From: an uncultured Candidatus Saccharibacteria bacterium
Lineage (GTDB): Bacteria; Patescibacteriota; Minisyncoccia; Minisyncoccales; Staskawiczbacteraceae
NCBI GenBank assembly: GCA_964479955.1
Contig: CAYZNK010000002.1
Span: 156,955 to 220,954 of the forward strand
DNA length: 64,000 nt
Direction of reading: 5' to 3'
Shown here: in pieces, positions 11,582 through 49,846 of the stretch
Layout of the letters: each line of letters begins with the position of its first letter
Numbering within the stretch: the first letter of the stretch is position 1
The notes under the pieces: generated by a model
What the model was told of the DNA's origin: nothing
Database searches by the model: none
Seen by the model: the letters and a program-made list of their open reading frames with translations, nothing else
Program-made: the position numbers and the translations under genes

Positions 11582-11644
11582 TATAAATATTTAATTATTT
11601 TTTCTTGCGGAATTTTATAATAAGCCTTAAAATTAAAAATAGTC

Positions 11645-11667
11645 ATTGGGGTGTCCGACACCCCAAT
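11645..11667 (+). terminator. GC-clamp hairpin (GGGGT...ACCCC family)
   Basis: ATTGGGGTGT-ccg-ACACCCCAAT, same family as 10547-10567. It abuts a motif copy. Confidence 0.35.
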
Positions 11668-11680
11668 ATTGTGCGACAAA
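11668..11680 (+). repeat. ATTGTGCGAC-word copy (forward)
   Basis: ATTGTGCGACAAA, intergenic, 46 nt upstream of ATG 11726. Confidence 0.8.
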
Positions 11681-12742: not shown

Positions 12743-13948
12743 ATGTTATCCCAAGAAACAAACAAAATATATAGCATTTCGGAATTTGTTGCATTTTTAA
12801 ATGTTGGGTTAAAATCCTCAAAAGCTAAAATTGTAGGAGAAATTGGTGAAGCAAAACAAGGACCAACAGGCCATATGTATTTTACCTTGAAAGACGAAAA
12901 GGACGCTTCAATGTTAAACTGCATTATTTGGGCCTCAAAATACAGACTTTATGGCATAACCCTTGAACCTGGCAAAAAAATTGTGGCTTTTGGAAACCCG
13001 GAGATTTATGCGCCTTCAGGCAGGCTTTCTTTTATTGCAGACAGCATTGAACTTGCAGGAGAAGGAGATTTAAAAAAGCAATACGACGAACTAAAAGCCA
13101 AATTGGAAAAAGAAGGAATTTTTTCTCCTGAAAATAAACGATTCATACCCAAATATCCGCACAAAATTGGAGTTATTACTTCAAAACAGGGAGCGGTCAT
13201 ACATGACTTTTTAAACAATATAGGCAAATTTGGATTTGATATCAAAATGATTGATTCAAGGGTTGAGGGTCAGGAGGCTGTGGCGGATTTGCTTTCAGCA
13301 ATAAAAACTTTCAGAAAAAAAGATATTGATGTTTTGGTCATTATAAGGGGTGGGGGCTCAATGGAGTCTTTGATGTGCTTTAACAATGAGCTGCTTGTAA
13401 GGGAAATTGCGGGGTTTCCTTGCCCCGTTATTGCGGGAATAGGCCACGACAAAGACGTTCCGCTGTCCGCGATGGCTTCTGATATAATGGTTTCAACGCC
13501 AACAGCGGCCGCAAACCTGATTAATGAATCATGGAGCCAGGCTCTATTGCTCTTAGAAAGGCTTGAAAGAAAAATTTTGGCAAGCTACGGCATAATTTTT
13601 GAAAAATTTAACTTTATTGAAAATAAATTTAAGGTTTCCTTGCAGAATTTTAAAAACAATATTATAAACCTAAAAAAAGAGTTGGAAAAACATCCGGAAT
13701 CTTTTTTTACGAAGTTTTCTTTATTGTGCGACAAATTCAGGACTTTTTTGGCAAATTCTGAAAAAATAATAAAATTAAACAGCCCGGAAAGAAATTTAAG
13801 GCTTGGCTACATAATCGCTAATATCAATGGTAGAGTGTTAAAAAGTGTAAAGAATATAAAAGTTGGAGATGTTGTAAACTTAAAACTTACAGACGGCCAA
13901 ATAAAGTCTGAAATAAAATCAATAAACGAGAAAAACAATCCCCAATAA
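12743..13948 (+). CDS. xseA: exodeoxyribonuclease VII large subunit
   Basis: N-terminal OB fold (ISEFVAFLN...GEIGEAKQGPTGHMYFTLKD), IGVITSKQGAVIHDF, IIRGGGS. Confidence 0.9.
   Translation: MLSQETNKIYSISEFVAFLNVGLKSSKAKIVGEIGEAKQGPTGHMYFTLKDEKDASMLNCIIWASKYRLYGITLEPGKKIVAFGNPEIYAPSGRLSFIADSIELAGEGDLKKQYDELKAKLEKEGIFSPENKRFIPKYPHKIGVITSKQGAVIHDFLNNIGKFGFDIKMIDSRVEGQEAVADLLSAIKTFRKKDIDVLVIIRGGGSMESLMCFNNELLVREIAGFPCPVIAGIGHDKDVPLSAMASDIMVSTPTAAANLINESWSQALLLLERLERKILASYGIIFEKFNFIENKFKVSLQNFKNNIINLKKELEKHPESFFTKFSLLCDKFRTFLANSEKIIKLNSPERNLRLGYIIANINGRVLKSVKNIKVGDVVNLKLTDGQIKSEIKSINEKNNPQ
13720..13737 (+). repeat. 18-mer TTTATTGTGCGACAAATT (forward) inside xseA
   Basis: Identical to 16120-16137 and 33695-33712. 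Read here as ..SLLCDKF.. Confidence 0.9.
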
Positions 13949-15601: not shown

Positions 15602-15674
15602 GGGGTTGTAGCTCACACCGGGAGAGCGTCCGCCAACTGGCGGAAGGCTGCGGGTTCAAATCCTGCCAACTCCA
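15602..15674 (+). tRNA. atypical tRNA-like gene (Ala-type acceptor with G3:U70 and A73; 6-nt anticodon loop)
   Basis: GGGGTTG/CAACTCC acceptor, D-arm GCTC-ACACCGGGA-GAGC, T-arm GCGGG-TTCAAAT-CCTGC. The anticodon stem TCCGC/GCGGA encloses only CAACTG, with no U33, so no anticodon can be assigned. Confidence 0.6.
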
Positions 15675-15788
15675 CTTTGCACATTATCAACTTAATACAT
15701 CCAAAATCAACTTCTTTTCTGAAACTCCAAAAACCCAATAATAAACTAGGCTTAGGCAACCACCCAAGTCTTTTTTATTGGTTTTTAG

Positions 15789-15849: not shown

Positions 15850-16266
15850 GTGATAATGATAACATTGCGCCAAGAAAAAATTTTAAATTTTCTGGTAAAG
15901 GAATATATAGCCACTTTGGAGCCGGTTGGCTCTTTGGCTTTAAAAAAAGTATGCGACCTTGATGTTTCCGGGGCAACAATAAGAAATGATTTACAGGAAC
16001 TTGCAAGGCAGGGATATATAGAACAGCCCTATACTTCGGCAGGCAGGGTGCCAACAAAAAAAGCATACAGGCATTTTGCAGAGTGCATAAGAAAACAGAA
16101 TGAAATAGAATTTGAAATGTTTATTGTGCGACAAATTAGGCATGCCAGAAGTGAAATGGAACAAGAAATGAAAATGATGGAAAAACTAATGGATACACTT
16201 GAAAACGACAATATTTTTGAAATATTAACAATTTTAGAATCATGGCACAAAAAAATAATGAATTAG
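15850..16266 (+). CDS. hrcA: HrcA-like heat-shock repressor, short form (winged-HTH domain only)
   Basis: LRQEKILNFLVKEYIATLEPVGSLALKK...SGATIRNDLQELARQGYIEQPYTSAGRVPT. Only 138 aa. Lies downstream of CIRCE and overlaps grpE by 25 nt. Confidence 0.75.
   Translation: MIMITLRQEKILNFLVKEYIATLEPVGSLALKKVCDLDVSGATIRNDLQELARQGYIEQPYTSAGRVPTKKAYRHFAECIRKQNEIEFEMFIVRQIRHARSEMEQEMKMMEKLMDTLENDNIFEILTILESWHKKIMN
16120..16137 (+). repeat. 18-mer TTTATTGTGCGACAAATT (forward) inside hrcA
   Basis: Identical to 13720-13737 but read in another frame (..MFIVRQI..). Confidence 0.9.
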
Positions 16267-28995: not shown

Positions 28996-29490
28996 TTATA
29001 ATGTTTTTGCAAGAGTCTGAGCCATCTGGAACCATTTGGGTTGCCTGGGCCTGGATTTATACTTTGCAGACGACTTATGAATTTCTATTAAGGTGTTTAA
29101 ATCGTTTTTCTTCCATGTTGCAAGATATTTTCCTTTATTTTTCTGGATTACCTCAACCCCTTTTGCCCAAAGCTCAAAATCTTTTTTCTTTTTTTCCGAC
29201 AAAGGATTCTTCCTAAAAAACGGAACTACTGTCTGGGCTATGTCTCCGATTTTCTGCACAGAAAACCTTGCCTGGTCTTTTGAAATTGTAATCTGTCCGC
29301 ATCCAATTTCTTTTTGTATTTTTTCCAAAATTTTAAGACTTTCTTTTTGGCAGGTAACCACAAACTGGGCTTTCCATCTGTAATATGTGGGAGCGTTTGT
29401 CCTTTCGTGCCTTGTGTCTTTGCGAAACTGCAAATCAAAGCATCCGTCATTGTTTACAATTTTTGAAACGCTAAAAATATCCTTTGCCAT
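28996..29490 (-). CDS. free-standing LAGLIDADG-family homing endonuclease (single-motif type)
   Basis: IVNNDGCFDLQF is a degenerate LAGLIDADG motif. KILEKIQKEIGCGQITI...FSVQKIGDIAQTVVPFFRKNPL..KKKDFELW is the typical family scaffold. Confidence 0.7.
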   Translation of the reverse strand: MAKDIFSVSKIVNNDGCFDLQFRKDTRHERTNAPTYYRWKAQFVVTCQKESLKILEKIQKEIGCGQITISKDQARFSVQKIGDIAQTVVPFFRKNPLSEKKKKDFELWAKGVEVIQKNKGKYLATWKKNDLNTLIEIHKSSAKYKSRPRQPKWFQMAQTLAKTL

Positions 29491-29706
29491 ATATTATTAA
29501 ATTAAGTTAGGCCTTAAATTTGATATCTATATTAATTATACCAAATATATTATTATGCGACAATACGCAGGTTTAAATATATATAGTTTTTTGCTAAAAT
29601 ATATGCAATACAATGGTTATAGACATTGAGCTCACTTTAAACAGGGGGCAGAAAATATAAAATCGCTTCTATTAAAATAGGAACCTTATTTATATAAATC
29701 TTAATT

Positions 29707-30114
29707 ATGAATCGGATTCAAATATTTTTTTCACAAATATTCGGAGTAGGGAACGTAATTTTTAAAGATAGATATCTAGAACTTTTTAGAATTTTTATTA
29801 TAGAAGAAATTCCTAGTATTATACAAATTATTACTTTTTTTGCTTTTTTGAACTTTTTAACTAAAAGTTTGGTCTTTAATCTTATATTTTGTATATTGAT
29901 TATTATTTTGCTTTATTTGTATTTGTTAGGGAGAATGCATAGATTTTTAGCGGGTCAGATAGAAAACTCAACTTCAGAATTTAACTGTAGTATTTGTGGA
30001 AAAATGGACTTAAAACAAACACTACATAAATGGAACTATTTCGCATTCTTTTTCTCGGTTGTTATTTCGATTATTATGACAATATTCGCAGTTTTTTACA
30101 GCTGTAAAATATAG
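29707..30114 (+). CDS. hypothetical multi-pass membrane protein
   Basis: 135 aa, three hydrophobic segments, CSICGK motif. Confidence 0.55.
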   Translation: MNRIQIFFSQIFGVGNVIFKDRYLELFRIFIIEEIPSIIQIITFFAFLNFLTKSLVFNLIFCILIIILLYLYLLGRMHRFLAGQIENSTSEFNCSICGKMDLKQTLHKWNYFAFFFSVVISIIMTIFAVFYSCKI

Positions 30115-30309
30115 TTTTATAGGATGTCTGGCATTTTATTGTGCAATATAAAATTGTAAATAAGTATAAAATAAGTTAATATAAATTAACAATTAATAAT
30201 AAGCCTAAACTCGTGGATTTTTGCAGGCATGTCGCCATAATGAGAGCCGAGTTCGTTCGGTTTTTTTGGTTAGATTGAAATTTTAGTGGAAAAAGAGTAA
30301 ATTAAAGCA

Positions 30310-31125
30310 ATGGATGGTAAAATTCTTTCAAAGATAAAACAAAACCCATATTTTTCCGAAGGAAATTTTGTTTTATATAACGCAGATAGCATAAAATTAT
30401 TAGAGGAGCTTCCAGAAAATTCTGTAGACATGATTTTTGCAGATCCGCCGTATAATTTATCTAATGGAGGATTCACTGTTCACGCTGGAAAAATGGTTAG
30501 CGTAAATAAAGGAGAGTGGGATAAAAGTAATGGCTTTGAGAAAGATTACAAGTTTCATTACGCATGGCTTCAGGCTTGCAAGCGGGTGTTAAAACCAGGT
30601 GGAACGCTTTGGGTGAGTGGAACATACCACTCAATTTATAAATGCGGACACGCACTTCAACAATTAGGTTACCATATTCTTAATGATATTTCTTGGTTCA
30701 AGCCTAATGCCTCTCCAAATTTAAGCTGCAGATTTTTTACAGCAAGCCACGAAACACTCATTTGGGCAAGAAAAGAAAAAGATGCAAGTCATACGTTTAA
30801 TTACAGAGAAATGAAAGACGGAAATTGGCCAGAAGATTTTATAAAAAAACCAAACAAACAAATGCGATCTGTCTGGGCCATAAATACTCCTCAGTCTTGG
30901 GAAAAAAAATTTGGAAAACATCCAACTCAAAAACCGTATAATCTTTTAGAAAGGATCATCTTATCTAGCACTAAAAAAGGAGACATTGTTTTAGATCCTT
31001 TTACTGGCGGATCAACAACGGGCTTAGCCGCAATTAAACATAGCAGAAAATTTTTTGGAATAGATACGGAGAAAAAATATCTTGACCTATCAATAAAAAG
31101 ATTTAAAAATATTAAATCAAATTAA
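30310..31125 (+). CDS. beta-class DNA methyltransferase (N6-adenine or N4-cytosine)
   Basis: Motif IV FADPPYNL precedes motif I LDPFTGGSTTG, which is the beta permutation. Confidence 0.85.
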   Translation: MDGKILSKIKQNPYFSEGNFVLYNADSIKLLEELPENSVDMIFADPPYNLSNGGFTVHAGKMVSVNKGEWDKSNGFEKDYKFHYAWLQACKRVLKPGGTLWVSGTYHSIYKCGHALQQLGYHILNDISWFKPNASPNLSCRFFTASHETLIWARKEKDASHTFNYREMKDGNWPEDFIKKPNKQMRSVWAINTPQSWEKKFGKHPTQKPYNLLERIILSSTKKGDIVLDPFTGGSTTGLAAIKHSRKFFGIDTEKKYLDLSIKRFKNIKSN

Positions 31126-31129
31126 TAAT

Positions 31130-31651
31130 ATGAAAACAGGAGGTATTGGAGGAGGTAATACAATAACTGGTCTTAATTTTGAAAAAAAGACTGATATTTT
31201 GAACCTTCTCAAGTCTAAAAAAGGTTATAAAGTTTCTAACAGTATTATTTATTATAATGGCGAAGAGGTTGCTAGAAGTTTTAAGAAAAATGGACTTTAT
31301 AAATTTCTTGAAACAAAGGGAGTAGACTACAAAAAAATTCTATCTAAAAAACTTCTGCCAGATGAGGCTATTTATGTAATTATAAATAACACTCTTTTTA
31401 TAATTGAAGTTAAATTCCAAAAAGTCGCAGGTTCTGTTGATGAAAAGCTGCAGACTTGTGACTTTAAAAGAAAACAGTATGCGAAGCTTATGGCTCCGTT
31501 AAACATAGAAGTTGAATACATTTATATCTTAAGTGATTGGTTTAGAAAACCAGAATATAAAGATGTTTTAGATTATATAATATCCGTGGGATGCCAGTAT
31601 TATTTTAAATATTTACCACTGCAAAAATTAGGGCTACCAGTCCCAAAATAA
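31130..31651 (+). CDS. putative type II restriction endonuclease (PD-(D/E)XK)
   Basis: Lies 4 nt downstream of the methyltransferase. PDEAIYV...IIEVKFQK fits PD...ExK. Confidence 0.45.
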   Translation: MKTGGIGGGNTITGLNFEKKTDILNLLKSKKGYKVSNSIIYYNGEEVARSFKKNGLYKFLETKGVDYKKILSKKLLPDEAIYVIINNTLFIIEVKFQKVAGSVDEKLQTCDFKRKQYAKLMAPLNIEVEYIYILSDWFRKPEYKDVLDYIISVGCQYYFKYLPLQKLGLPVPK

Positions 31652-31672
31652 AAATTAATTAAGAAATAAAAA

Positions 31673-32278
31673 ATGGATTTCTTACGACGGGAAATTTTAA
31701 GGTATAAAGTTACAAACTTAAATTTCTTAATAAGGCCCGTTTTTAAAAATTTTGGGGTAATTACAAAAGAGAAAAATCCTAAGGAATATTTTATTTTATC
31801 TGCGCTAAATAAAATATATTCTATAAATGTTTCTTTAGAAAATATTATTTTTACCAACGACATTTTTTTATCAATATATATTTACCGATACGTATATGAG
31901 CTTTATATAAAAATATTTTATATTTTCTCTGGGAAATCTGAGGTTGAAATTCTAGGTAGAATTAATGATTTCTTTGTAGATGGACCCTCCACAGCTAAAA
32001 TTCATCATTGCGAAAAATATTTGGATAAGAGATTCGTACCATCTAAGGTTACCCGAGATCACGCAAAAAAATATAAAATAATGTCTAAATTTGTTCACCC
32101 AAATTTAGCTAGCCTCGCCCTTCATTACCAGGATCGTAAACAGCAATTTGAGTTTCTTATCCCAAATATAAATTTATCAGTCTGGCTTCTTGTTGATCTA
32201 ATAAGATTTTTTCTTAAAAGCGGGCTAATTATAGGAGTTGATGATAGCAAACTATCTGATATACAAAAGATTAATTAA
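31673..32278 (+). CDS. hypothetical protein
   Basis: 201-aa AT-rich ORF, last gene of the R-M islet. Confidence 0.55.
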   Translation: MDFLRREILRYKVTNLNFLIRPVFKNFGVITKEKNPKEYFILSALNKIYSINVSLENIIFTNDIFLSIYIYRYVYELYIKIFYIFSGKSEVEILGRINDFFVDGPSTAKIHHCEKYLDKRFVPSKVTRDHAKKYKIMSKFVHPNLASLALHYQDRKQQFEFLIPNINLSVWLLVDLIRFFLKSGLIIGVDDSKLSDIQKIN

Positions 32279-32349
32279 AAGAATGTCGCAAAAGATACGT
32301 TTACTAAAGCCGGCTTTCAATTAAGTCGGTTTTTTGGTAGAATTAAAGT

Positions 32350-32892
32350 ATGAAAAATGATTATACAAAAAAAGATGGTTTTGCAAAAATGATTTTGCTA
32401 TACATTGCGATAGTTGTGGCTATCTTTGGACTGACTTATTATTTTTTCTTGCTAAGAAATCCGCAAGCCCAAGATAACCAAAGTTCTATAAACATTGGCG
32501 TTGTTCCACAGGATAAAATTTTAAATTTAAGCAATCAGGGACTAACAAGCATTCCTTCATACGTTTTTAACCGAGCGGATTTAGAAGAATTGAATGTTTC
32601 TCATAATTCCTTAACTGGCGCCATTCAGTCTCAGATAGGAAAATTGAAAAATTTAAAAATCATTGACGCCAGCTACAATCAAATGACCGGCGTGCCAGCA
32701 GAGGTTGGGCAACTGCAAAAATTGCAGATTCTTGATTTATCATACAACCAACTGACGGGTTTGCCTTATGAGTTAGGCAACTTAAGCAACCTAAAAACCT
32801 TGAATTTATCAGGAAATTCATATTCCCAACAAGACCTTGACTATATTCGCGATAAACTGCCGCCAACAGTAAATATTATCGTAAATCAATAA
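32350..32892 (+). CDS. membrane-anchored leucine-rich-repeat protein
   Basis: N-terminal TM helix. Five LxxLxLxxNxLtG repeats (LEELNVSHNSLTG, LKIIDASYNQMTG, ...). Confidence 0.8.
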   Translation: MKNDYTKKDGFAKMILLYIAIVVAIFGLTYYFFLLRNPQAQDNQSSINIGVVPQDKILNLSNQGLTSIPSYVFNRADLEELNVSHNSLTGAIQSQIGKLKNLKIIDASYNQMTGVPAEVGQLQKLQILDLSYNQLTGLPYELGNLSNLKTLNLSGNSYSQQDLDYIRDKLPPTVNIIVNQ

Positions 32893-32914
32893 ATTGGTTT
32901 TAATGACCCTAGCG

Positions 32915-32939
32915 ACCGCCTTTCAATTGAGGCGGTTTT
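32915..32939 (+). terminator. intrinsic terminator
   Basis: ACCGCC-tttcaattga-GGCGGT followed by TTT. Confidence 0.7.
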
Positions 32940-32973
32940 AGTTTGCTAAATTTTATTATTTTAAAAGGAAAAT

Positions 32974-33001
32974 TAAAAGCCATCAGCTAAATGCCGTGGC
33001 T
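32974..33001 (-). terminator. intrinsic terminator of the 129-aa gene
   Basis: Minus strand: AGCCA-(13 nt)-TGGCT followed by TTTTAATTTT. Confidence 0.5.
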
Positions 33002-33027
33002 ATAATGTTTATGAAAGGAGAAGGGGA

Positions 33028-33417
33028 TTATCCTAAATAAACTTCGTCGTCACCCTTTGCTAACCGTTCTATGCGGTCTAGAATGTCAGAGGTAACTCCA
33101 TAAAGCCGCAAGTCTGTTATACAGTCTAATATCTCTTTTCTATGTTCATCGCGCGCCTTTTCTAGCGCCAAGCTGGCCAATCTTTCAGCTTTCCGTAGCT
33201 TAACTAATTCCTTGCAGTTCTTTTCAAATTCTCGTCTAGCTTTTGTTGCCTCATCTAGTACGTCTCTAGCTTTTTTCATTTCTGAAGATGCTTTACCCCT
33301 GACCCCCACAAGGACTTCCTTCAAATCCTTTTTACTTGGCGTGTACGGCTTACGAGTTTTTGGCAATCTCGATTGATTTTTTTTCAAAAAACCGGTTAGA
33401 TCATTGCGATTAGGCAT
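33028..33417 (-). CDS. hypothetical coiled-coil protein (129 aa, GC-richer)
   Basis: AAGGAG lies 8 nt upstream of the ATG. Basic N-terminus, then helices KARDVLDEATKARREFEKNCKELVKLRKAERLASLALEKARDEH. Confidence 0.65.
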   Translation of the reverse strand: MPNRNDLTGFLKKNQSRLPKTRKPYTPSKKDLKEVLVGVRGKASSEMKKARDVLDEATKARREFEKNCKELVKLRKAERLASLALEKARDEHRKEILDCITDLRLYGVTSDILDRIERLAKGDDEVYLG

Positions 33418-33470
33418 GCTTGTATCTCCTTTTATTAAACCTTATTGATGTGCCTTGTTGTAATAGAATA

Positions 33471-33498
33471 TAATAACATAACAAAAAAACAGATTCAA
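33471..33498 (-). promoter_or_regulatory. sigma70-type promoter of the 129-aa gene
   Basis: Minus strand TTGAAT (33498-33493), 16-nt spacer, TATTAT (33476-33471). Confidence 0.5.
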
Positions 33499-33501
33499 AC
33501 A

Positions 33502-33545
33502 TTTTGTCTCACCTGTCTCTGCCGGCAGATACAGGTGAGACAAAA
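33502..33545. promoter_or_regulatory. 44-bp near-perfect palindrome abutting the -35 (candidate operator)
   Basis: TTTTGTCTCACCTGTCTCTGCC|GGCAGATACAGGTGAGACAAAA with one mismatch. An A-run lies 3' in both orientations, so it is not a canonical terminator. Confidence 0.5.
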
Positions 33546-33694
33546 TATGGATTGAAATTTTGCCATAAAAGAGACGAATTTAAATAATAATTAAAATTAA
33601 TTAAGAAATAAAAATCTACAAAAAAATAAATTATTTTGTAGATTGTTTTAATGGCAAAAAATTTATTTAAATCCAAACAAAAACAAAGTTAATC

Positions 33695-33712
33695 TTTATT
33701 GTGCGACAAATT
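33695..33712 (+). repeat. 18-mer TTTATTGTGCGACAAATT (forward)
   Basis: Identical to the xseA and hrcA copies. Nt 33695-33711 are the exact reverse complement of 35050-35066. Confidence 0.9.
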
Positions 33713-33721
33713 AATGGAAGG

Positions 33722-33754
33722 AAAATCGGGCGCCCCATGGGAAAACCCGATTTT
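33722..33754 (-). terminator. intrinsic terminator of the 385-aa gene
   Basis: AAAATCGGG-(15 nt)-CCCGATTTT, 28 nt downstream of the stop at 33782. Confidence 0.7.
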
Positions 33755-33781
33755 ATTGTTGTTTGGCCTAATGGTTTTTGG

Positions 33782-34939
33782 TTAAAACCTGATTGGGCGG
33801 TATCCCGACTGACTGCTAAAACGCACCACCCAGCGATTGTCGTAAGGCGCTACAATTAAAGTTGAGCGCAATTTGCTTGGGTTTGGCATACGAAGCAGCC
33901 AGCTTGTATCCACATACAGCCTTCCGTTATACTGGCGGAAGACACTGTAATTGGGCGGAGTAGACATCAGAACGCCGTCCTTTGTCCACGGTCTATCCTG
34001 AAAAACCTCGTAAAGAATTAGGGCCGGCTTGCTGTCATCATGCTGACATCTGGCATATTGCACAAACGAAAGCCAGTGAATCCACTCGCCAATTTTCTCG
34101 CCGTTGGCAAGAATAAATCCTACGGGGCTAGATTGGGGCTGTAAATCAGAAAGATAAAGCGCCCGCGACGGGCCGCCAGGTTTTCCATAGTGCAGAAACT
34201 GTGCCACTTGGGAATCTTGCATAAACCCGCTATCAATAAAGTTCTCCTTGTAGCCGGCTTTGCCAGCGTCTCCAAGAAAAGTAACAAACCGCTTCATCTC
34301 ACCAACGGCATTAATACTTGGAAAGAGAATTACCTGGCCGTTCGCCTGTATATAGTCAAAGTTGATTTGAGATTCCACATCGTTTGGCAATTTGGTAATC
34401 CTATTACCAGCCGCGCAGGAAATTGCAATTTCCCTGGTGATATAATTAATAATCACCGCGAAAATTGGCACCCCGCGCCGCACACAACTGATTGCTGAAG
34501 TTGCCCCGGTTATGCTTGCTGGCGCGCCAAACTTGGCCTCCCATTTGCTGATAACTTCGGCACTTCCAAAAATATCATTGATTACCGTATCCCGCGGAAA
34601 ATCGCTAAGAAACTCTTTGAGCTGGTTAGAACGGTCGGTGGGGTCAGAAATAAAAACCGTACGAAATGTCTGTGGGTCATTAGGACGAAACGTATCGCCG
34701 TCAACATTGACTCCGCGCGAACCAACCTCTTCAGTAATCACAATGGCGCCCGCGTCATACCTGGCAAGCTCCTCGCAAATAATAATCTCCGGCCCTGCGT
34801 CCATACCAAGAGTGTCTTTTTTTCCATAAGCGGCGATGGGTCTAAGCGCATCGTCAACTGTGGAATGCAACAAATCGCTGTAAGCAGTTAATGCCGCGGA
34901 AATTGCCGCATTCAGATGTGATTTTTCAACGCCTTGCAT
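33782..34939 (-). CDS. divergent IMPase/FBPase-fold (sugar-phosphatase-like) protein, GC-rich
   Basis: Start moved to ATG 34939 (AAGGAG 8 nt upstream): MQGVEKSHLN... EE motif in AIVITEEVG; DP.D motif in VFISDPTDRSNQL. The C-terminal half is unassigned. Confidence 0.75.
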   Translation of the reverse strand: MQGVEKSHLNAAISAALTAYSDLLHSTVDDALRPIAAYGKKDTLGMDAGPEIIICEELARYDAGAIVITEEVGSRGVNVDGDTFRPNDPQTFRTVFISDPTDRSNQLKEFLSDFPRDTVINDIFGSAEVISKWEAKFGAPASITGATSAISCVRRGVPIFAVIINYITREIAISCAAGNRITKLPNDVESQINFDYIQANGQVILFPSINAVGEMKRFVTFLGDAGKAGYKENFIDSGFMQDSQVAQFLHYGKPGGPSRALYLSDLQPQSSPVGFILANGEKIGEWIHWLSFVQYARCQHDDSKPALILYEVFQDRPWTKDGVLMSTPPNYSVFRQYNGRLYVDTSWLLRMPNPSKLRSTLIVAPYDNRWVVRFSSQSGYRPIRF

Positions 34940-34998
34940 AATCAGTACTCCTTTTTCCAATTGATAACAGGCCAAAAAAAATTTAAAGGTACACTTTG

Positions 34999-35027
34999 AA
35001 ACTATCACAAACCCAACTATTTGTAAA
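34999..35027 (-). promoter_or_regulatory. possible promoter of the 385-aa gene
   Basis: Minus strand TTTACA (35027-35022), 17-nt spacer, TAGTTT (35004-34999). Confidence 0.35.
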
Positions 35028-35049
35028 TATTTTTTCCATCTCATTTTAT

Positions 35050-35066
35050 ATTTGTCGCACAATAAA
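35050..35066 (-). repeat. ATTGTGCGAC-word copy (reverse), inverted partner of 33695-33711
   Basis: The plus strand reads ATTTGTCGCACAATAAA. Confidence 0.9.
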
Positions 35067-35111
35067 ACAGACGGGGCACCCGTGGGGCAGGGGAGAGAGA
35101 ACAAGCAATTC

Positions 35112-35128
35112 ATTGTGCGACAGATTGG
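35112..35128 (+). repeat. ATTGTGCGACAGATTGG (forward), inverted partner of 37347-37363
   Basis: A 17-nt exact inverted pair. The last 4 nt overlap the -35 TTGGAA of sigma promoter P1. Confidence 0.9.
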
Positions 35129-35153
35129 AAAAACCCCAAAATAGAACTATAAT
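35125..35153 (+). promoter_or_regulatory. sigma70-type promoter P1 of the sigma-factor gene
   Basis: TTGGAA, 17-nt spacer, TATAAT (35148-35153). Confidence 0.55.
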
Positions 35154-35154
35154 A

Positions 35155-35183
35155 TTGACAAAATTGGGATTTATTTATAAAAT
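35155..35183 (+). promoter_or_regulatory. sigma70-type promoter P2 of the sigma-factor gene
   Basis: TTGACA (35155-35160), 17-nt spacer, TAAAAT (35178-35183). Confidence 0.55.
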
Positions 35184-35214
35184 AAGTTAAGCTCTTTTCA
35201 AGAAAGGATTCCTT

Positions 35215-35760
35215 ATGCAATCGTGCCAGTTAGATGAAATTGGAGAAATTGTTGAAAGAGTACAGGCTGGAGACAATGACTCTTTTGGTCTTCTGTACTC
35301 AATGTTTAGGGGTAGCATCATGGCTTGCTTGATAAACATGGGAATCAAATACCATGAAGCCGAAGACCTTTGTAATGATATTTTTCTCCAGGCACACAGA
35401 AAAATAACCGATCTAAGAGAACCTAAAAAGTTCTTTGCATGGTTGAAGGTTATAGCTAAACGCATGGGCATAAACTTCCTTATCCGAAGAAAATGTCTAC
35501 CATCTCTGGAAGAATTATTTGAGCCAAATGAAATAAGCGACCCCAGTGGCAGACTGGTTAAGCTTGAAGATGTGCATTTTGCCAGAAAATTATTGGAAGA
35601 TTTGCAGCCCATGGATTCGCAATGCCTTAGACTGTTTTACTTTGATGGACTTTCGCTATTGGAAATAGCGGAGATACTTGGGATTCCATCGGGAACAGTG
35701 AAGCGGCGCCTGCACGTTGCCAGAAAGCGGGCAAAAAAACAAAAGAAATTTGCGTTTTAG
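35215..35760 (+). CDS. ECF-type (group 4) sigma-70 family RNA polymerase sigma factor
   Basis: Region 2: DLCNDIFLQAHRKI...FFAWLKVIAKRMGINFLIRR. Region 4: LRLFYFDGLSLLEIAEILGIPSGTVKRRLHVARKRA. Confidence 0.8.
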   Translation: MQSCQLDEIGEIVERVQAGDNDSFGLLYSMFRGSIMACLINMGIKYHEAEDLCNDIFLQAHRKITDLREPKKFFAWLKVIAKRMGINFLIRRKCLPSLEELFEPNEISDPSGRLVKLEDVHFARKLLEDLQPMDSQCLRLFYFDGLSLLEIAEILGIPSGTVKRRLHVARKRAKKQKKFAF

Positions 35761-35764
35761 CAGA

Positions 35765-35787
35765 GCCACCACTTGCGTGGCTTTTTT
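35765..35787 (+). terminator. intrinsic terminator
   Basis: GCCAC-cacttgc-GTGGC followed by TTTTTT, running into the next motif copy. Confidence 0.7.
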
Positions 35788-35798
35788 ATTGTGCGACA
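35784..35798 (+). repeat. TTTTATTGTGCGACA (forward), inverted partner of 37418-37432
   Basis: A 15-nt exact inverted pair enclosing the recombinase and the 119-aa gene. Confidence 0.85.
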
Positions 35799-35818
35799 TT
35801 TTAATAAGTTGAGGTAAA

Positions 35819-36832
35819 CTATTTTTTGTCCGGGTCGCTGTGATATTGGTGGTGAATGTCTCGGAGGCGTTTGTTAGTTACATGAGTATAGATTTGAGTT
35901 GTTGCAATATTTGAGTGGCCCAAAAATTCTTGGATACTGCGCAGGTCAACGCCCTGATTTAGTAAATCTGTTGCGTAGGAATGTCGCAAGGTGTGTGGAG
36001 TGGTAAAAACCGGAATTCCGGATAACAACGCATACTTTTTTACCATACGTTCTATGGAGCGCGGAGTGAGTCTGGCATCAACATTATCTTTCTTGTCACG
36101 AAAATTTATAAACAAGGCCTTGGTATTGGCGTTTGATATATCGTTTCTTATTTCTAAATATTTTTTTATGTGATCTAAGGCACGCTCTGAAAAATAAACA
36201 ACACGCGGTTTTCCGCCTTTTCCTATAACTCCAAGTTCTAAATCTTTTTTATCTTTTATGCTGTTGAACTGCTCAAGGTTTAAAGATGTTAACTCGGCGA
36301 TTCTAAGGCCGGTTGAAAAAAAAGACTCTAAAATAGCCCTGTCTCTTATAGAAATTGCGTCTTTTGGCTCAACAGAGGCTAAAAGCTTACCAATCTGCTC
36401 TAAACTAAGGAATTTCACGGATTTTTGGCTTTTATCTGCCTTTGGAAGCGATATTTTACCCGGAGGGGTAGACAATATGTCTTTTGCCACAAAGTAGCCT
36501 AAAAGGGCTCTCAGGGCTATAAGATAGTAGTTTTGGGTGGATTTTGATAATAATTTGCCTGTGGCTGGGCTTGGCTGACGAGATAAAAATAATCTATATT
36601 TCCAAATGTGATCTGAGGTCAGTTGGTGGGGGAGTAAAGAGCTTAAATTAGCTTTATTTTGCCAATAAAAAAACTTTTCTAAATATTTTTTATAATTCTC
36701 TTGCGTATTATCACGCAAACCTTTTTCAACTTCACAATAATCCAAAAAATCCTGCAGATGATCTTTGATTGGTTTTGTTGATTCTTGCATTTTGTTATAT
36801 GTATACTTCGGTTTACCTACATTTTGCGACAT
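35819..36832 (-). CDS. xerC: Xer-like tyrosine site-specific recombinase
   Basis: N-terminal SAM-like domain. Catalytic region GLRIAEL, HTLRHSYATDLLNQGVDLRSIQEFLGHSNIATTQIYTHV. Confidence 0.85.
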   Translation of the reverse strand: MSQNVGKPKYTYNKMQESTKPIKDHLQDFLDYCEVEKGLRDNTQENYKKYLEKFFYWQNKANLSSLLPHQLTSDHIWKYRLFLSRQPSPATGKLLSKSTQNYYLIALRALLGYFVAKDILSTPPGKISLPKADKSQKSVKFLSLEQIGKLLASVEPKDAISIRDRAILESFFSTGLRIAELTSLNLEQFNSIKDKKDLELGVIGKGGKPRVVYFSERALDHIKKYLEIRNDISNANTKALFINFRDKKDNVDARLTPRSIERMVKKYALLSGIPVFTTPHTLRHSYATDLLNQGVDLRSIQEFLGHSNIATTQIYTHVTNKRLRDIHHQYHSDPDKK

Positions 36833-36918
36833 TCTATATATTTATAATAAATCGCCTCCTAGAGGTGTGTCAATACTCAAAAGCATCAAACGACACGACT
36901 TAAAACGGTTTTTAAAAA

Positions 36919-37278
36919 TTAATTTGCCGGACAATTTTGAGGAGATCCGGGATTTACAATACTATTTTTGATTCCTGAAATATAATCCCCAACTTTTTCC
37001 AAAACATTTTCAGAAATTTCTTCTTTCTGAGTTTCAATGGCATCTTTTGCCATCTCTCCCCTCTTCTGCGACTCTTCCAGCAGGGTAGGATATGCTTTAT
37101 TAGAAACCCAGTTTATGCCATCTTCCCAACGGTCATATATGGCGGCTGAAACATTGGAAAACAAATTTTTGTCCTCTACGTTATTAAAATGGTCCTGCTG
37201 GCTCAAAAAAACTATGGCTGATATTACGACTATTGCGCCAATATAAATTATAAGCTTTTTTTTACTGTTTCCCTTCAT
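36919..37278 (-). CDS. membrane-anchored hypothetical protein (119 aa)
   Basis: N-terminal TM helix KLIIYIGAIVVISAIVFL. Confidence 0.6.
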   Translation of the reverse strand: MKGNSKKKLIIYIGAIVVISAIVFLSQQDHFNNVEDKNLFSNVSAAIYDRWEDGINWVSNKAYPTLLEESQKRGEMAKDAIETQKEEISENVLEKVGDYISGIKNSIVNPGSPQNCPAN

Positions 37279-37346
37279 TTTAATGAAAATATCTTAATCT
37301 TATAATATTATAAATATGTTTTATTTCCTCCCTCACCTGCCATAGC

Positions 37347-37377
37347 CCAATCTGTCGCACAATAGTCGCACAATAAA
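37347..37377 (-). repeat. two reverse ATTGTGCGAC-word copies (tandem GTCGCACAATA x2)
   Basis: CCAATCTGTCGCACAAT (37347-37363) is the inverted partner of 35112-35128. GTCGCACAATA is repeated at 37354-37364 and 37365-37375. Confidence 0.9.
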
Positions 37378-37417
37378 CAGACCTCCCAAAAAATAAAGAT
37401 AAATAAAATTGTAAAAT

Positions 37418-37432
37418 TGTCGCACAATAAAA
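37418..37432 (-). repeat. ATTGTGCGAC-word copy (reverse)
   Basis: The plus strand reads TGTCGCACAATAAAA. Confidence 0.85.
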
Positions 37433-37453
37433 TAACACACTACACCAAATATA

Positions 37454-38980
37454 TTATGTTATTGATAACATCTTAATTGCGTCTTTAATGCGTTTTAAGG
37501 TTTTCTCCTTGCCCAATATATCAGCTATTTCAAACGGGCTTGGAGAAAACTTTTTACCCGACAGGGCAACTCTTAGCGGCCATAGCAGATATCCCCTGTT
37601 ATTTTGCGGATAATTCTTTTCTGAATTAAATTTTTGTGAAGCTGACAATAATTCTTTTTCAACATTTTCATAATTCCATTTGTTTATATTAGACATAACG
37701 CTTTCCGACAAAGATAAAGAATCAAGCACTTCCCCATCTTTCATATTCTGCCATCGCAACATTTCCTTATCAAAAAATAATTCCTTAATAAAGAAAAAAT
37801 CTGACAACTCAGAAATATCGGAAAGTTTTTTCATTCTTGATTTTGAAACTTCAATAATTTTTTGAAGATGCAAATCAGTCATACTCTCCCCTGCCCCGTC
37901 TTTGTAGTTGCCATTTTCTTCTTTGATAAGTTTTTTATCAACAAGATAAGGAATACATAGCTCTGTTAATTTTTCTATTGATTTTTCCCTTATATACACG
38001 CCGTTAATAAAATCCAGCCTTTGTAAATTGAAAACAGCACCTGATTTCTGCACTTTTTCAATTGAAAATTCTTTTTCTAACTGTGACAAAGAAAATATTT
38101 CTTTTTCTGTCCCAGGATTCCACCCCAGCAAAACCATAAAATTTATCATGGCTTCTGGAAGATATCCTTGGTTTTTATATTCACTTACAGATACTGCCCC
38201 AAATCTTTTGCTCATTTTTGACCTGTCTGGCGCCAGTATCAAAGGCAAGTGGCCGTATTCAGGCCTATCAAAACCAAGCGCATCTTGAATTAAAATCTGT
38301 TTCGGGGTATTGGCAATATGGTCTTCTCCTCTTATTACATGGCTTATTTTCATTTCGAAATCATCAACTACAACCGCAAAATTATATAAAGGAGTCTTTA
38401 CGTCTTTTGCTATAACAATATCTCCAATAAGGCCTGCGTCAAACTCAACATTTCCTCTGATTAAATCTTTAAACTTAATTTTTTTATTTTCAACTCTAAA
38501 TCTTATAACTGATGGTATTTTATCTGCAATATTTTTTTCTATTTCCTGCTTGGAAAGACTTGCGCATTTTCCGTCATATTTTGGAGCTAATCCCCTGCTC
38601 ATTTGGTCTTGGCGCTTTTGTTCCAATTCGTCCTGAGAGCAAAAACAATAATACGCCTCATTTTCTTTTAAAAGTTTTTCTAAATATTTTTTATATGAAT
38701 CCAATCTCTGAGTTTGTTTGTACGGCCCAAAATCTCCATCAATGTCAGGTCCTTCGTCCCACTCAATCCCCAACCACTTTAATCCGTCAATTATATCCTG
38801 TGTCCATTTAATGTCAGACCTCTCTAAATCAGTATCTTCTATTCTTAACACAAAAGAACCTGCGTTTTTCTTTGCGAAAAGATAATTAAAAAGCGCGCTT
38901 CTTGCTGTTCCAATATGCAGGGCCCCTGTTGGCGAAGGCGCAATTCTTACTCTTATTTTTTTAAAATCATTGTTTTTCAT
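37454..38980 (-). CDS. gltX: glutamate--tRNA ligase
   Basis: RVRIAPSPTGALHIGTARSALFNY (HIGH motif) and KMSKR. Confidence 0.95.
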   Translation of the reverse strand: MKNNDFKKIRVRIAPSPTGALHIGTARSALFNYLFAKKNAGSFVLRIEDTDLERSDIKWTQDIIDGLKWLGIEWDEGPDIDGDFGPYKQTQRLDSYKKYLEKLLKENEAYYCFCSQDELEQKRQDQMSRGLAPKYDGKCASLSKQEIEKNIADKIPSVIRFRVENKKIKFKDLIRGNVEFDAGLIGDIVIAKDVKTPLYNFAVVVDDFEMKISHVIRGEDHIANTPKQILIQDALGFDRPEYGHLPLILAPDRSKMSKRFGAVSVSEYKNQGYLPEAMINFMVLLGWNPGTEKEIFSLSQLEKEFSIEKVQKSGAVFNLQRLDFINGVYIREKSIEKLTELCIPYLVDKKLIKEENGNYKDGAGESMTDLHLQKIIEVSKSRMKKLSDISELSDFFFIKELFFDKEMLRWQNMKDGEVLDSLSLSESVMSNINKWNYENVEKELLSASQKFNSEKNYPQNNRGYLLWPLRVALSGKKFSPSPFEIADILGKEKTLKRIKDAIKMLSIT

Positions 38981-48619: not shown

Positions 48620-49846
48620 TTATTTCTTTTTTATTTTTCTAAATTTTCTATTTCCAACTTTTATAACCCTTCCATTGTATATATCTATATTAATCTTTTC
48701 TTTCCAATCATTAATTTTTTGCCAATCGCCTCCTTCTATTTCTATTGCAACACCCCCACCCTCAATTAATCTTTTTGCTTCACTTTTTGATGCGCTCAAT
48801 CCGCTGTCGCACAATAAATCCATGATTGGACAAAAATTCTGGGAAACTTCAAAAATTTCTATTTCTTCGGGCAATTCTCTTTTACTATGAATCTTATTAA
48901 ATTCTTCCTCCGCTTTTTTAGATTCTTTGCCTCCGTAAAAAATTTTTGTTATTTCATAGGCCAGCCTTGCTTTTGCATCTCTTGGATTAAATTCTGTGAT
49001 TATTTTTTCTATTTCCTCAAGCGCCAGATAAGTATTGTTCACAAATAAAATTTTAATCATTTCGTCAGGCTGGGCCATTATTTGCCCGTACATATCCTTT
49101 GGGCCCGCATCCAAAAAAACTCCCGTGCCCTTGCTTTTTGACATTAATTCTCCAGTTTTTGGATTTTCCATCAAAGTGACGGCAACAACAAATTTGTCTT
49201 TATTTTTTAACTTTTTCATCAGGTCCCTGCCTGCTAAAGCATTAAAAATCTGGTCTGTACCGCAAACTTCAACATCAACATCCATTGCCACAGAGTCATA
49301 TCCCTGCATCAAAGGATATAAAAATTCATTTAAATAAATCGGTTTTTGCTCTTTAATTCTTTTTTCAAACATATCCCTTTCAAGCAATCTTTGAACGGTA
49401 AAATTACCTGCCAAATTTATCAAATCTTCCATATTCAACCTTGAAAGCCAGCTGTTATTATACATTATTTTTGGCGGATTCTTAAAATCATTAAAATTCA
49501 TTAAGGGTTTTATTAACTGCTTCCATTTTTTAACATTTTCTGTGACCTCTTTTTTGGTCAGCTGTTTTCTGACAGAATTTTCTCCGGTTGGGTCCCCTAT
49601 TCTTGCTGTGAAATCCCCAAAAAGTATAATAACCTCGTGGCCTAATCTTCTGAATTTTTCCATCAGGATTATGTTTTTGGCATGGCTTAAATGCAGAGTT
49701 GGCGAAGTTGCGTCAAAACCTATATAAAACCTCATCTTCTTGCCGGAAGCCAATTTTCTCCTGAAGTCTTCTTTATCTGGTAAAATTTCCACTATGGTTC
49801 CTCTATTTAGCACCTGGTCAATTTTTTCTATATTTGTTTCTGGCAT
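48620..49846 (-). CDS. tyrS: tyrosine--tRNA ligase
   Basis: YIGFDATSPTLHLSH (HIGH-like), KMSKSKG, C-terminal S4-like domain. Confidence 0.95.
   Translation of the reverse strand: MPETNIEKIDQVLNRGTIVEILPDKEDFRRKLASGKKMRFYIGFDATSPTLHLSHAKNIILMEKFRRLGHEVIILFGDFTARIGDPTGENSVRKQLTKKEVTENVKKWKQLIKPLMNFNDFKNPPKIMYNNSWLSRLNMEDLINLAGNFTVQRLLERDMFEKRIKEQKPIYLNEFLYPLMQGYDSVAMDVDVEVCGTDQIFNALAGRDLMKKLKNKDKFVVAVTLMENPKTGELMSKSKGTGVFLDAGPKDMYGQIMAQPDEMIKILFVNNTYLALEEIEKIITEFNPRDAKARLAYEITKIFYGGKESKKAEEEFNKIHSKRELPEEIEIFEVSQNFCPIMDLLCDSGLSASKSEAKRLIEGGGVAIEIEGGDWQKINDWKEKINIDIYNGRVIKVGNRKFRKIKKK
48805..48819 (-). repeat. ATTGTGCGAC-word copy (reverse) inside tyrS
   Basis: The plus strand reads TGTCGCACAATAAAT, in the sense orientation of tyrS, where it encodes ..DLLCDS.. 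Confidence 0.85.

Follow-up and report, generated by a model that had tools for sequence, protein, structure and literature searches.

A Xer recombinase gene, a candidate dif site and a polar array of lone dif-arm copies at the probable replication terminus of a Staskawiczbacteria-like chromosome

Introduction

Does a tyrosine recombinase gene surrounded by exact short inverted repeats mark a locus at which gene modules are inverted or shuffled? The question is raised by a 64-kb stretch of contig CAYZNK010000002.1 from an uncultured Candidatus Saccharibacteria bacterium (hereafter the window, meaning the whole stretch that was analysed), a genome of the candidate phyla radiation (CPR) in which copies of one short word lie on both sides of a gene for a Xer-family recombinase (xer). 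An earlier note, made from the sequence alone, had read this arrangement as a candidate invertible or cassette-shuffling locus. The present analysis points in another direction: the repeats appear to be lone copies of a single arm belonging to a 28-bp dif-like site located in the leader of the recombinase gene, nearly all of them are directed toward that site, and the locus is probably the terminus of replication. Dimer resolution by Xer at dif would itself be of a known kind, and the polar array of lone-arm copies is the new part; no description of the motif, of a CPR dif site or of a strictly polar lone-arm array converging on dif was found in the literature searched.

Results

The core word ATTGTGCGAC is present in 11 copies in the window, as compared with 0.02 expected from a shuffled control. 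Seven of the copies surround the recombinase gene between 33.7 and 37.4 kb, and a re-scan of the window recovered every one of them at the coordinates given in the earlier note. The three inverted pairs described there are exact as well: two 17-nt pairs are identical at 100% (33695-33711 with 35050-35066, and 35112-35128 with 37347-37363), the third is formed by a 15-mer at 35784 and 37418, and the tandem GTCGCACAATA-GTCGCACAATA is present at 37354-37375. Four additional copies that the earlier note did not list are located far from the recombinase, at 11668, 13723 and 16123 on the plus strand and at 48806 on the minus strand. Three of these four fall within coding sequences, namely those of the exonuclease VII (ExoVII) large subunit, of a helix-turn-helix (HTH) protein upstream of grpE-dnaK, and of a tyrosyl-tRNA synthetase (TyrRS; open reading frame (ORF) 48620-49846, its identity being assigned from reading the translation). 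The paired sequences are not private to their pairs, as further copies of the first 17-mer were found at 13720 and 16120, and a further copy of the 15-mer at 35053. A simple strand rule holds across the window, with copies on the plus strand to the left of approximately 36.8 kb and on the minus strand to the right, the copy at 35054 being the single exception. The repeats have no match in Rfam that would identify an RNA element.

Comparison of 39 distinct copies by information content confined the conserved element to 14 bp, TTTA-TTGTGCGAC-A, with unconserved flanks on both sides, and the resulting repeat consensus, TTTATTGTGCGACA, corresponds to the left arm of dif plus a T-rich flank. That the repeats are related to the site of the recombinase, as had been supposed, is thus borne out by their match to one arm of the 28-bp dif-like site in its gene leader. 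A partner arm was found next to none of the copies, either by eye, by information content or with a right-arm pattern, which occurred there at the frequency seen in random controls; since the second arm is missing, the repeats are described here as lone half-sites and not as complete crossover sites of a tyrosine recombinase. The likeness between word and arm extends to other lineages (individual loci and contigs are designated by L and a number). In ten of them (L140, L143, L145, L146, L150, L154, L155, L156, L158 and L178) the left arm of dif reads exactly GTCGCACAAT; in L077, where the recombinase homologue is 42% identical, the right arm of the full site ATGTCGCAAAA-GGTATA-TTGTGCGACAT is the motif, and the site of L082 contains TTTTATTGTGCGACA. 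In the lineage of the window itself, the dif arm and the polar word differ by one base. A variant of the word, ATTATGCGACA, keeps the polarity (L122 at 9561 and 11708, L124 at 8942, and L209 at 10588-11612) and often provides the ATG of the next called gene, the products of which begin with MRH or MRQ; G/A/T variation at this place preserves an NTG codon.

Orientation is the most regular property of the half-sites. Of the 101 copies counted in the 44 genomes that bear the motif, 96 are directed to dif (p = 7e-23, a value that assumes independent copies, many of which occupy homologous positions in related genomes), and it is this flip of polarity at dif that produces inverted pairs across the terminus. 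Orientation follows the replichore and not the gene strand in seven of the nine informative cases, and at CPR loci unlinked to xer 17 of 20 copies are on the G-rich strand. In every polar copy the T-rich, centre-like end faces the origin and the outer end faces dif. Copies are densest near the recombinase, at 0.41 per kb in the 2 kb before dif and 0.64 per kb in the 2 kb after xer, with 0.15 per kb or less further out; the word is therefore not equally dense irrespective of the recombinase, and the even distribution that the earlier note had named as a refutation of its proposal is not what was seen. Two positions are kept down to approximately 57% recombinase identity, one about 600 bp upstream of xer, past gltX, and the other directly past the xer stop codon. 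The latter, represented in the window by 35785..35798, is the most conserved of the family: more than 25 related loci have a copy 0-110 bp past the xer stop, and tandem pairs 24-25 bp apart are frequent at this position. Most copies are intergenic, and those within genes use three reading frames (YCAT in MurL, LLCD in TyrRS, glutamyl-tRNA synthetase (GluRS) and XseA, and FIVRQ elsewhere), which argues for selection at the level of DNA. A scan of GTDB with the 14-mer returned at least 120 matches, mostly attributable to chance, and CPR genomes were enriched among the matches listed.

The half-sites at 35053..35066 and 35109..35122 of the window form a divergent pair separated by a G-rich spacer of 45 nt (35067-35111, TGGGGCAGGGGAGAG), and of the relatives only the closest (L207/L208) has this spacer, there too together with an anti-polar copy. 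G/C-rich spacers of 45-58 nt adjoin anti-polar copies in the window (35067-35111), in L207 (11340-11407) and in L209 (10600-10656), and in the window and L209 the spacer sits between divergent copies.

The candidate dif of the window, ATGTCGCAAAA-TGTAGG-TAAACCGAAGT, has the 11-6-11 form. The recombinase gene had previously been drawn up to 36832, and the ORF indeed runs that far; its homologues, however, begin at the ATG at 36790, so that the extension is a read-through of dif, and dif is accordingly placed in the leader of xer. Transcription is predicted to start approximately 5 nt before dif, and the same promoter-dif layout is found in relatives. A dif-like site is located upstream of xer, at the same position, in approximately 78 of 84 related loci; its commonest form is ATGTCGCAAAA-TGTAGG-TAAAGCGACGT, and the consensus of the approximately 78 sites reads AnGTCGCA(T/C/A)AA-TGTAGG-T(T/A)AAGCGACnT, with a left arm that resembles the XerC arm of E. 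coli. Arm positions 3 and 26 are complementary in 81% of the sites versus 50% in shuffles, and all four types of complementary pair are seen at positions 2 and 27. Such symmetric covariation is as expected of a single recombinase reading both arms, with the reservation that the sites are phylogenetically related and so are not independent.

The strict full-site pattern matched almost exclusively the dif position in all loci searched, and a scan of relatives for conserved non-coding blocks around xer returned solely dif and the copies of the motif. Because of its conserved place, its covarying arms, its near-unique pattern and its standing as the sole conserved non-coding element besides the motif, the 28-mer can be read as a conventional dif-like site; in the window as in relatives, it is found where GC skew and gene orientation switch. 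Among the findings that would refute its proposal, the earlier note had listed a conventional dif of 28-30 bp elsewhere as the only site bound by the recombinase; a conventional dif-like site does appear to exist, and it adjoins the recombinase gene instead. A classical dif of the E. coli or Bacillus type near gltX (37440-37465) was also considered and rejected, as the resemblance by eye was weak and relatives have no conserved block there.

In a distant clade (L169, L177, L179, L180, L184, L187, L188 and L197) dif takes the form ACTTCGCATAA-TGTAGA-TTAAGCGAAGT and is inverted relative to xer, and the polar word was not found in this clade; nor was any lineage-specific polar word found in the clade with ACTTCGC arms. 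The GluRS gene is downstream of and convergent with xer in L177 and L187, and likewise in the motif-less loci L171, L189, L196, L198 and L206, where dif is normally oriented. These arrangements suggest that the side of dif that bears xer changed during CPR evolution.

The product of xer contains the Pfam domain Phage_integrase (5.9e-37) and a SAM-like N-terminal domain (Phage_int_SAM), and its catalytic set is complete and invariant in the alignment (R149, K191, H266, R269, H292 and Y301). The best NCBIfam matches were all below their cut-offs, namely XerD with 224 bits (cut-off 330), XerC with 219 (335) and XerA with 189 (220), and the nearest solved structures are XerA (4a8e) and XerD (1a0p); judged by these matches, the recombinase is a member of the Xer family and of no described equivalog. 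More than 100 protein clusters are 78-90% identical to it, as compared with 65-71% for the GluRS of the same loci, and by this measure xer is a core, highly conserved gene. A metagenome scan with the alignment of recombinase homologues provided 80 more loci, at 53-84% identity.

In the window, the cumulative GC skew climbs to 35-37 kb and then drops, with genes on the plus strand to the left and on the minus strand to the right, and the skew flips at xer in every relative for which it was computed (L122-L126, L067 and L073). As GC skew and gene direction both switch there, the locus is probably where replication of a Staskawiczbacteria-like CPR chromosome terminates, and Xer is probably its housekeeping chromosome-dimer resolvase, of the single-recombinase type. 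In systems of this type, dimers are usually resolved under the control of FtsK and each chromosome has one functional dif; no ftsK gene was found within the window. Gene order on one side of xer is well conserved: in the relatives with the longest contigs (L122, L123, L124/125, L126, L207, L209 and L211), MurD/MurL, FtsW, MurG, GluRS, the small membrane protein and xer follow one another on one strand, and past xer there are convergent genes that differ in each genome. Three further records (L005, L015 and L096) encode proteins 60-83% identical to those of the window in the same gene order, and their Saccharibacteria label is probably unreliable. Elsewhere in the window, a tRNA-like gene was called by ARAGORN at 15602-15675 on the plus strand with a two-base 'ac' anticodon and no assigned identity.

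In partial agreement with the earlier note, xer borders a variable gene island, which extends between its stop codon and the backbone marked by a LAGLIDADG ORF and uppS. The free-standing ORF at 28996-29490 on the minus strand is 66-83% identical to ORFs of relatives that match LAGLIDADG_1 in Pfam (L123, L207, L209 and L211) and adjoin uppS and the gene for L27; it lies at the inner edge of the conserved backbone. The island of the window encodes a type II methyltransferase with a 173-aa partner, a 201-aa protein, a leucine-rich repeat (LRR) protein, a 129-aa protein, a protein resembling inositol monophosphatase (IMPase) and an extracytoplasmic function (ECF) sigma factor; the closest relatives have in the same interval a cold-shock gene alone or together with 1.6 kb of other genes. 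No homologue of the sigma, IMPase-like, 129-aa, LRR or 201-aa genes was found in any related locus, and on this distribution the sigma and IMPase-like genes are cargo of the island and not states between which a switch would alternate. The one part of the island also found in a relative is the methyltransferase pair (30310-31651): the methyltransferase (PADLOC MTase_II, 9e-99) and the adjacent 173-aa protein, which may form a restriction-modification pair, are 74% and 61% identical, respectively, to the pair in the island of L124. The IMPase-like gene (33782-34942, minus strand) has 47% GC in surroundings of approximately 35% and runs against the direction of replication. Its product has no sequence match in Pfam, NCBIfam, PADLOC or PDB, and only the FISDPTDRS motif of the translation, which is DPxDxS/T-like, hints at the IMPase and fructose-bisphosphatase (FBPase) family.

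Within the island, between the 201-aa and LRR genes, there is a second dif-like site, ATGTCGCAAAA-GATACG-TTTACTAAAGC. It is inverted with respect to dif, its left arm and 3 flanking nt are identical to those of dif (14 bases), and its right arm is degenerate. Full secondary dif-like sites in direct orientation are also present 5-9 kb beyond xer in L122 (15068-15095), L124/L125 (19122-19149) and L141 (18433-18460); two of these read ACGTCGCAAAA-TATATG-TTYYGCGAAG, one has the centre GATGCG, and their flanks are not homologous. Besides these and the window, no chromosomal locus showed a secondary site. In L124, the interval from dif to the second site contains xer, Mrr, a methyltransferase and an OLD-family ATPase with a UvrD helicase (Gabija-like). 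Low-GC viral contigs in IMG/VR also have intergenic 28-bp dif-like sites of the CPR type (L221 8306-8333, L219 5651-5678, L225 14403-14430 and L215 1595-1622), for instance ATGTCGCAAAA-TATATG-TTAAGCGACGT. Two of these contigs, L219 and L221, are phage-like, as they encode the large terminase subunit and a head or portal protein, and their dif-like sites are beside the packaging module; no xer homologue was found in the examined stretch of either. The centres of the phage sites (TATATG and GATATG) resemble those of the chromosomal secondary sites, which points to elements that exploit Xer, and L219 and L221 are candidate Xer-exploiting phages of CPR hosts. Phage genes were found next to xer in none of the chromosomal loci examined.

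Table 1. Features of the window around xer, together with the distal half-sites
Feature	Position	Strand	Remark
Distal polar half-site	11665..11678	+	intergenic, past a terminator hairpin
Distal polar half-site	13720..13733	+	within the ExoVII large-subunit gene
Distal polar half-site	16120..16133	+	within the HTH-protein gene upstream of grpE; encodes FIVRQ
Variant half-site TATTATGCGACA	29551..29562	+	outer edge of the variable island, beside the LAGLIDADG ORF
Variable island, 6.3 kb	29566..35818		between the xer stop and the LAGLIDADG/uppS backbone
Second dif-like site	32283..32310	+	between the 201-aa and LRR genes
Polar half-site	33695..33708	+	downstream of the IMPase-like gene; orientation that of the replichore, against the minus-strand genes nearby
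Anti-polar half-site	35053..35066	-	the only one of the window; divergent pair with the copy at 35109-35122
Polar half-site	35109..35122	+	adjoins the -35 box of the sigma-gene promoter
ECF sigma factor gene	35215-35760	+	in the variable island
Polar half-site	35785..35798	+	adjoins the terminator of the sigma gene (35762-35784) on its far side; directed into the xer 3' end
Xer-family tyrosine recombinase gene (xer)	35819..36790	-	homologues begin at ATG 36790
Candidate dif, 28 bp, 11-6-11	36805..36832	-	between the xer promoter and start codon
Predicted xer promoter, TTGACA-18-TATTAT	36844..36873	-	11/12 matches, the best of the region; approximately 12 nt before dif
Conserved small membrane protein gene, 119 aa	36919..37278	-	always between gltX and dif/xer
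Two tandem polar half-sites	37353..37377	-	spaced with a period of 11 bp, upstream of the gene for the small membrane protein
Polar half-site	37418..37431	-	reverse complement of TTTATTGTGCGACA; directly past the gltX stop; position kept in relatives
Glutamyl-tRNA synthetase gene (gltX)	37454..38980	-	last large backbone gene of this replichore
Distal polar half-site	48805..48818	-	within the TyrRS-like gene, other replichore; encodes LLCD

Discussion

The half-sites are most likely Xer-bound markers of the terminus, comparable to the XerD-binding dif-like sites (XDS) of Bacillus, to the FtsK-orienting polar sequences (KOPS) and to Ter sites. Under this proposal, Xer would resolve chromosome dimers at the 28-bp dif. 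Since dif is located just past the predicted transcription start in the xer leader, Xer bound there would also hinder its own transcription and so throttle it. Xer monomers would in addition bind the lone half-sites, which could act as oriented terminus markers or as one-way obstacles around dif: a motor on its way out of the dif zone would run into the outer face of Xer, just as it does at dif, and a motor heading to dif would run into the inner face. A wider version of this proposal can be put forward only tentatively. It regards the CPR Xer as a chromosome-architecture protein, whose monomers on dif-ward half-sites would form a one-way gate by which a motor (FtsK, Smc-ScpAB or the replisome) is kept inside the approximately 2-4 kb around dif or is prevented from entering them, and, with the secondary and phage dif-like sites added, the terminus could become an Xer-dependent landing pad for new genes.

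Several observations weigh against the half-sites being Xer-bound markers. Lineages in which both dif arms have changed to TTCGC/GCGAA (L162-L166 and L041) retain ATTGTGCGAC as the polar word, and this want of covariation with the dif arms leaves room for a separate reader, for instance the FtsK gamma domain. Two anti-polar copies, at 35054 of the window and at 11408 of L207, run counter to the polarity, and both are beside the shared G/C-rich spacer. When L207 is compared with L211, each extra gene of the variable region is accompanied by one extra motif copy, so that a role in gene insertion would still be compatible with the data. The inverted site at 32283-32310 could in principle allow a 4.5-kb inversion that includes xer. 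Lastly, the distribution of the motif as described here covers approximately 10 kb around xer in the relatives together with the 64-kb window.

Among the alternatives, the one that survives best, unlikely as we consider it, is that the reader of the polar word is a DNA motor and not Xer, the word acting either as a KOPS-like signal, or one similar to the SpoIIIE recognition sequences (SRS), for FtsK, or as a Chi-like signal for an AddAB-type nuclease, the likeness to the dif arm then being secondary. The strict leading-strand polarity that flips at dif, the over-representation of the word and its copies within genes are all consistent with such a reader, as is the lack of covariation with the dif arms in the TTCGC lineages. 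The window moreover encodes an AddA-like helicase-nuclease; this gene (7597-10536, plus strand) combines a UvrD helicase with a PD-(D/E)XK nuclease, and its presence implies that the organism should have a Chi-like signal. However, KOPS, SRS and Chi words have 5-8 bases, and the 14 conserved bases of the present word are far more than that; the word is identical to the left arm of dif in ten lineages and is a genuine arm in L077 and L082; and its copies, most of them in intergenic DNA, are strongly clustered within 2 kb of dif instead of being distributed along the replichore.

It is less probable still that the half-sites mark gene acquisition, as scars or docking sites of mobile elements that exploit Xer (integrative mobile elements exploiting Xer, IMEX, or elements like the pdif modules), with the island built module by module. 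In favor of this scenario, the region past the xer stop varies between close relatives, the comparison of L207 with L211 gives one motif copy per extra gene, L122, L124 and L141 have full secondary dif-like sites at a distance of 5-9 kb from dif and the window has one at 4.5 kb, and phage contigs have full dif-like sites of the CPR type with centres like those of the secondary chromosomal sites. The copies of the word, however, are without a second arm, occur within conserved genes of housekeeping function and, on the side of dif that does not vary, at conserved places of the backbone, and are arranged as mirror images across dif, unlike integration scars. No phage genes adjoin xer in the chromosomal loci examined, and homology between relatives may stop at the motif merely because the motif is the last conserved element.

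Inversion or shuffling by the recombinase of the segments between inverted copies, in the manner of a shufflon or inverton, is very improbable, and the same applies to the modified form in which the 4.5 kb between dif and the site at 32283-32310 are inverted. The case for it consists of exact inverted repeats adjoining a tyrosine recombinase gene, of the 14-nt identity between dif and the second, inverted site, and of a precedent in Ureaplasma, for which Xer-like recombinases have been proposed to invert DNA at short inverted repeats (PMC3599477). If the second site were active, the inversion of 4.5 kb would place the LRR gene behind the xer promoter. Against this, the right arm of that site is degenerate, and a site of its kind is inverted in this genome only. 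The claim of an invertible or cassette-shuffling locus found no support in the repeats either: they are half-sites only, their orientation follows the replichore, and the word is not specific to the locus, being found 12-25 kb away in housekeeping genes and in many other CPR genomes. Orientation variants, which comparison of relatives might have revealed, were absent, the order of GluRS, small gene and xer and their strand being the same in 45 of 45 related motif-group loci with GluRS upstream; the nine loci with the other arrangement, in which GluRS is downstream, belong to distant lineages without the motif, in some of which dif itself is inverted. No inverted arrangement was thus seen in any related motif-bearing locus, and in an independent SRR8925719 assembly the sequence runs colinear through the repeat at 35784, with the same junction. 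In addition, the bracketed segments are whole genes with their own promoters and terminators; they offer neither alternative gene ends nor the logic of a promoter placed in an invertible segment. The loose likeness to integrons that had been suggested fared no better, since integron integrase profiles reached 115 bits (cut-off 265) and 56 bits (cut-off 435) and the adjacent hairpins are ordinary terminators. No attC-like hairpins were found, as the hairpins beside the copies contain neither the word nor its inverse, and the modules have their own promoters and mixed orientations.

Equally hard to credit is that the word serves a transcription factor such as the ECF sigma as operator or promoter element, with a polarity that results merely from gene orientation: many copies do follow a terminator and precede the next promoter, with 2-20 bp between copy and -35 box, and the variant copy often overlaps the ATG of the next gene, but the distance to the promoter varies, some copies come after the last gene and are directed into the xer 3' end, others are in coding sequences in three frames, orientation tracks the replichore where the gene disagrees, the word matches the dif arm, and the sigma gene is missing in every motif-bearing relative. 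The ECF sigma was rejected as reader of the motif, and the motif as its regulon, because no homologue of the sigma gene is present in motif-bearing relatives. A role as a DNA-uptake sequence was likewise rejected, as uptake sequences have no strict replichore polarity, clustering at dif or identity with a dif arm.

On the reading favored here, which is the sounder one, what had the appearance of a gene-shuffling switch is machinery of the terminus, and this is of direct use for the annotation of CPR genomes: the analysis provides a dif consensus, a marker of the terminus and a reason for the gene variation beside xer. Should Xer indeed bind the half-sites, they would constitute a simple sequence code for terminus organisation in uncultured organisms. 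The phage contigs with dif-like sites suggest, in addition, that integration exploiting Xer occurs in CPR bacteria too.

Comparison with known systems

Shufflons (Rci), fim-type invertons and integrons share with the present locus a tyrosine recombinase gene beside short inverted repeats. Here, however, the repeats are incomplete and not specific to the locus, orientation variants are absent, and profiles of integron integrases and invertases score far below their cut-offs. The pdif modules of Acinetobacter and IMEX such as CTX-phi, TLC and the gonococcal genetic island (PMC12907356, PMC11705084 and PMC6744903) likewise combine gene modules with Xer-type sites beside or between them. As in those systems, phages without a visible integrase have dif-like sites, and secondary dif-like sites occur in the island. 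The boundaries of pdif modules and IMEX are full 28-bp sites, whereas the repeats flagged here are one arm, and no integrated phage was seen at the locus. Shufflons, invertons, integrons and pdif modules are each defined by features that this locus lacks.

The polarity of the half-sites has its counterparts in other terminus systems. KOPS with FtsK, the SRS of SpoIIIE and the architecture-imparting octamers show the same leading-strand excess, the same switch at dif, a density that rises toward dif and tolerance of copies within genes; the present word differs in having 14 bases instead of being an 8-mer, in not being G-rich, in its mostly intergenic position and in its match to a recombinase arm. 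In the Tus-Ter and RTP-Ter systems two opposed groups of polar sites flank the terminus, and in Bacillus the innermost inverted pair of RTP-Ter adjoins the gene of the binding protein (the replication terminator protein, RTP); the copies here bracket xer. No homologue of Tus or RTP was identified here, and the site resembles instead the arm of a recombinase.

As regards the recombinase and dif, the features of Xer/dif systems found here are the full catalytic set, the 11-6-11 site and the location at the terminus. The XerS/difSL system of streptococci and lactococci, XerH/difH of Helicobacter and XerA/dif of archaea likewise have one recombinase and a dif of approximately 28-31 bp at the terminus, beside the recombinase gene. 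To our knowledge, a polar array of lone arm copies occurs in none of the XerS, XerH and XerA systems. The recombinase of the present locus is closer to XerD, XerC and XerA than to XerS or XerH, albeit below every equivalog cut-off, and its dif is located within the leader, past the promoter and ahead of the start codon. In Halobacterium, a dif-like sequence precedes the xerA operon, as PMC11840125 notes.

The nearest documented case appears to be that of XerD at the XDS of the Bacillus subtilis terminus, where XerD bound to these dif-like sites unloads Smc-ScpAB (Karaboja et al. 2021, as cited in PMC11840125 and PMC11894783). Both systems have extra sites of the Xer type around the terminus, away from dif, without use in crossover and several together, the binding of Xer and an effect on SMC being putative for the present locus. 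The differences are that the sites here are strict 14-bp half-sites, that their polarity is strict and that they are packed within approximately 2 kb of dif. If Xer binds them, the idea developed for the XDS of Bacillus would be extended to a distant lineage of tiny genomes, in which one protein perhaps does the work of several terminus systems.

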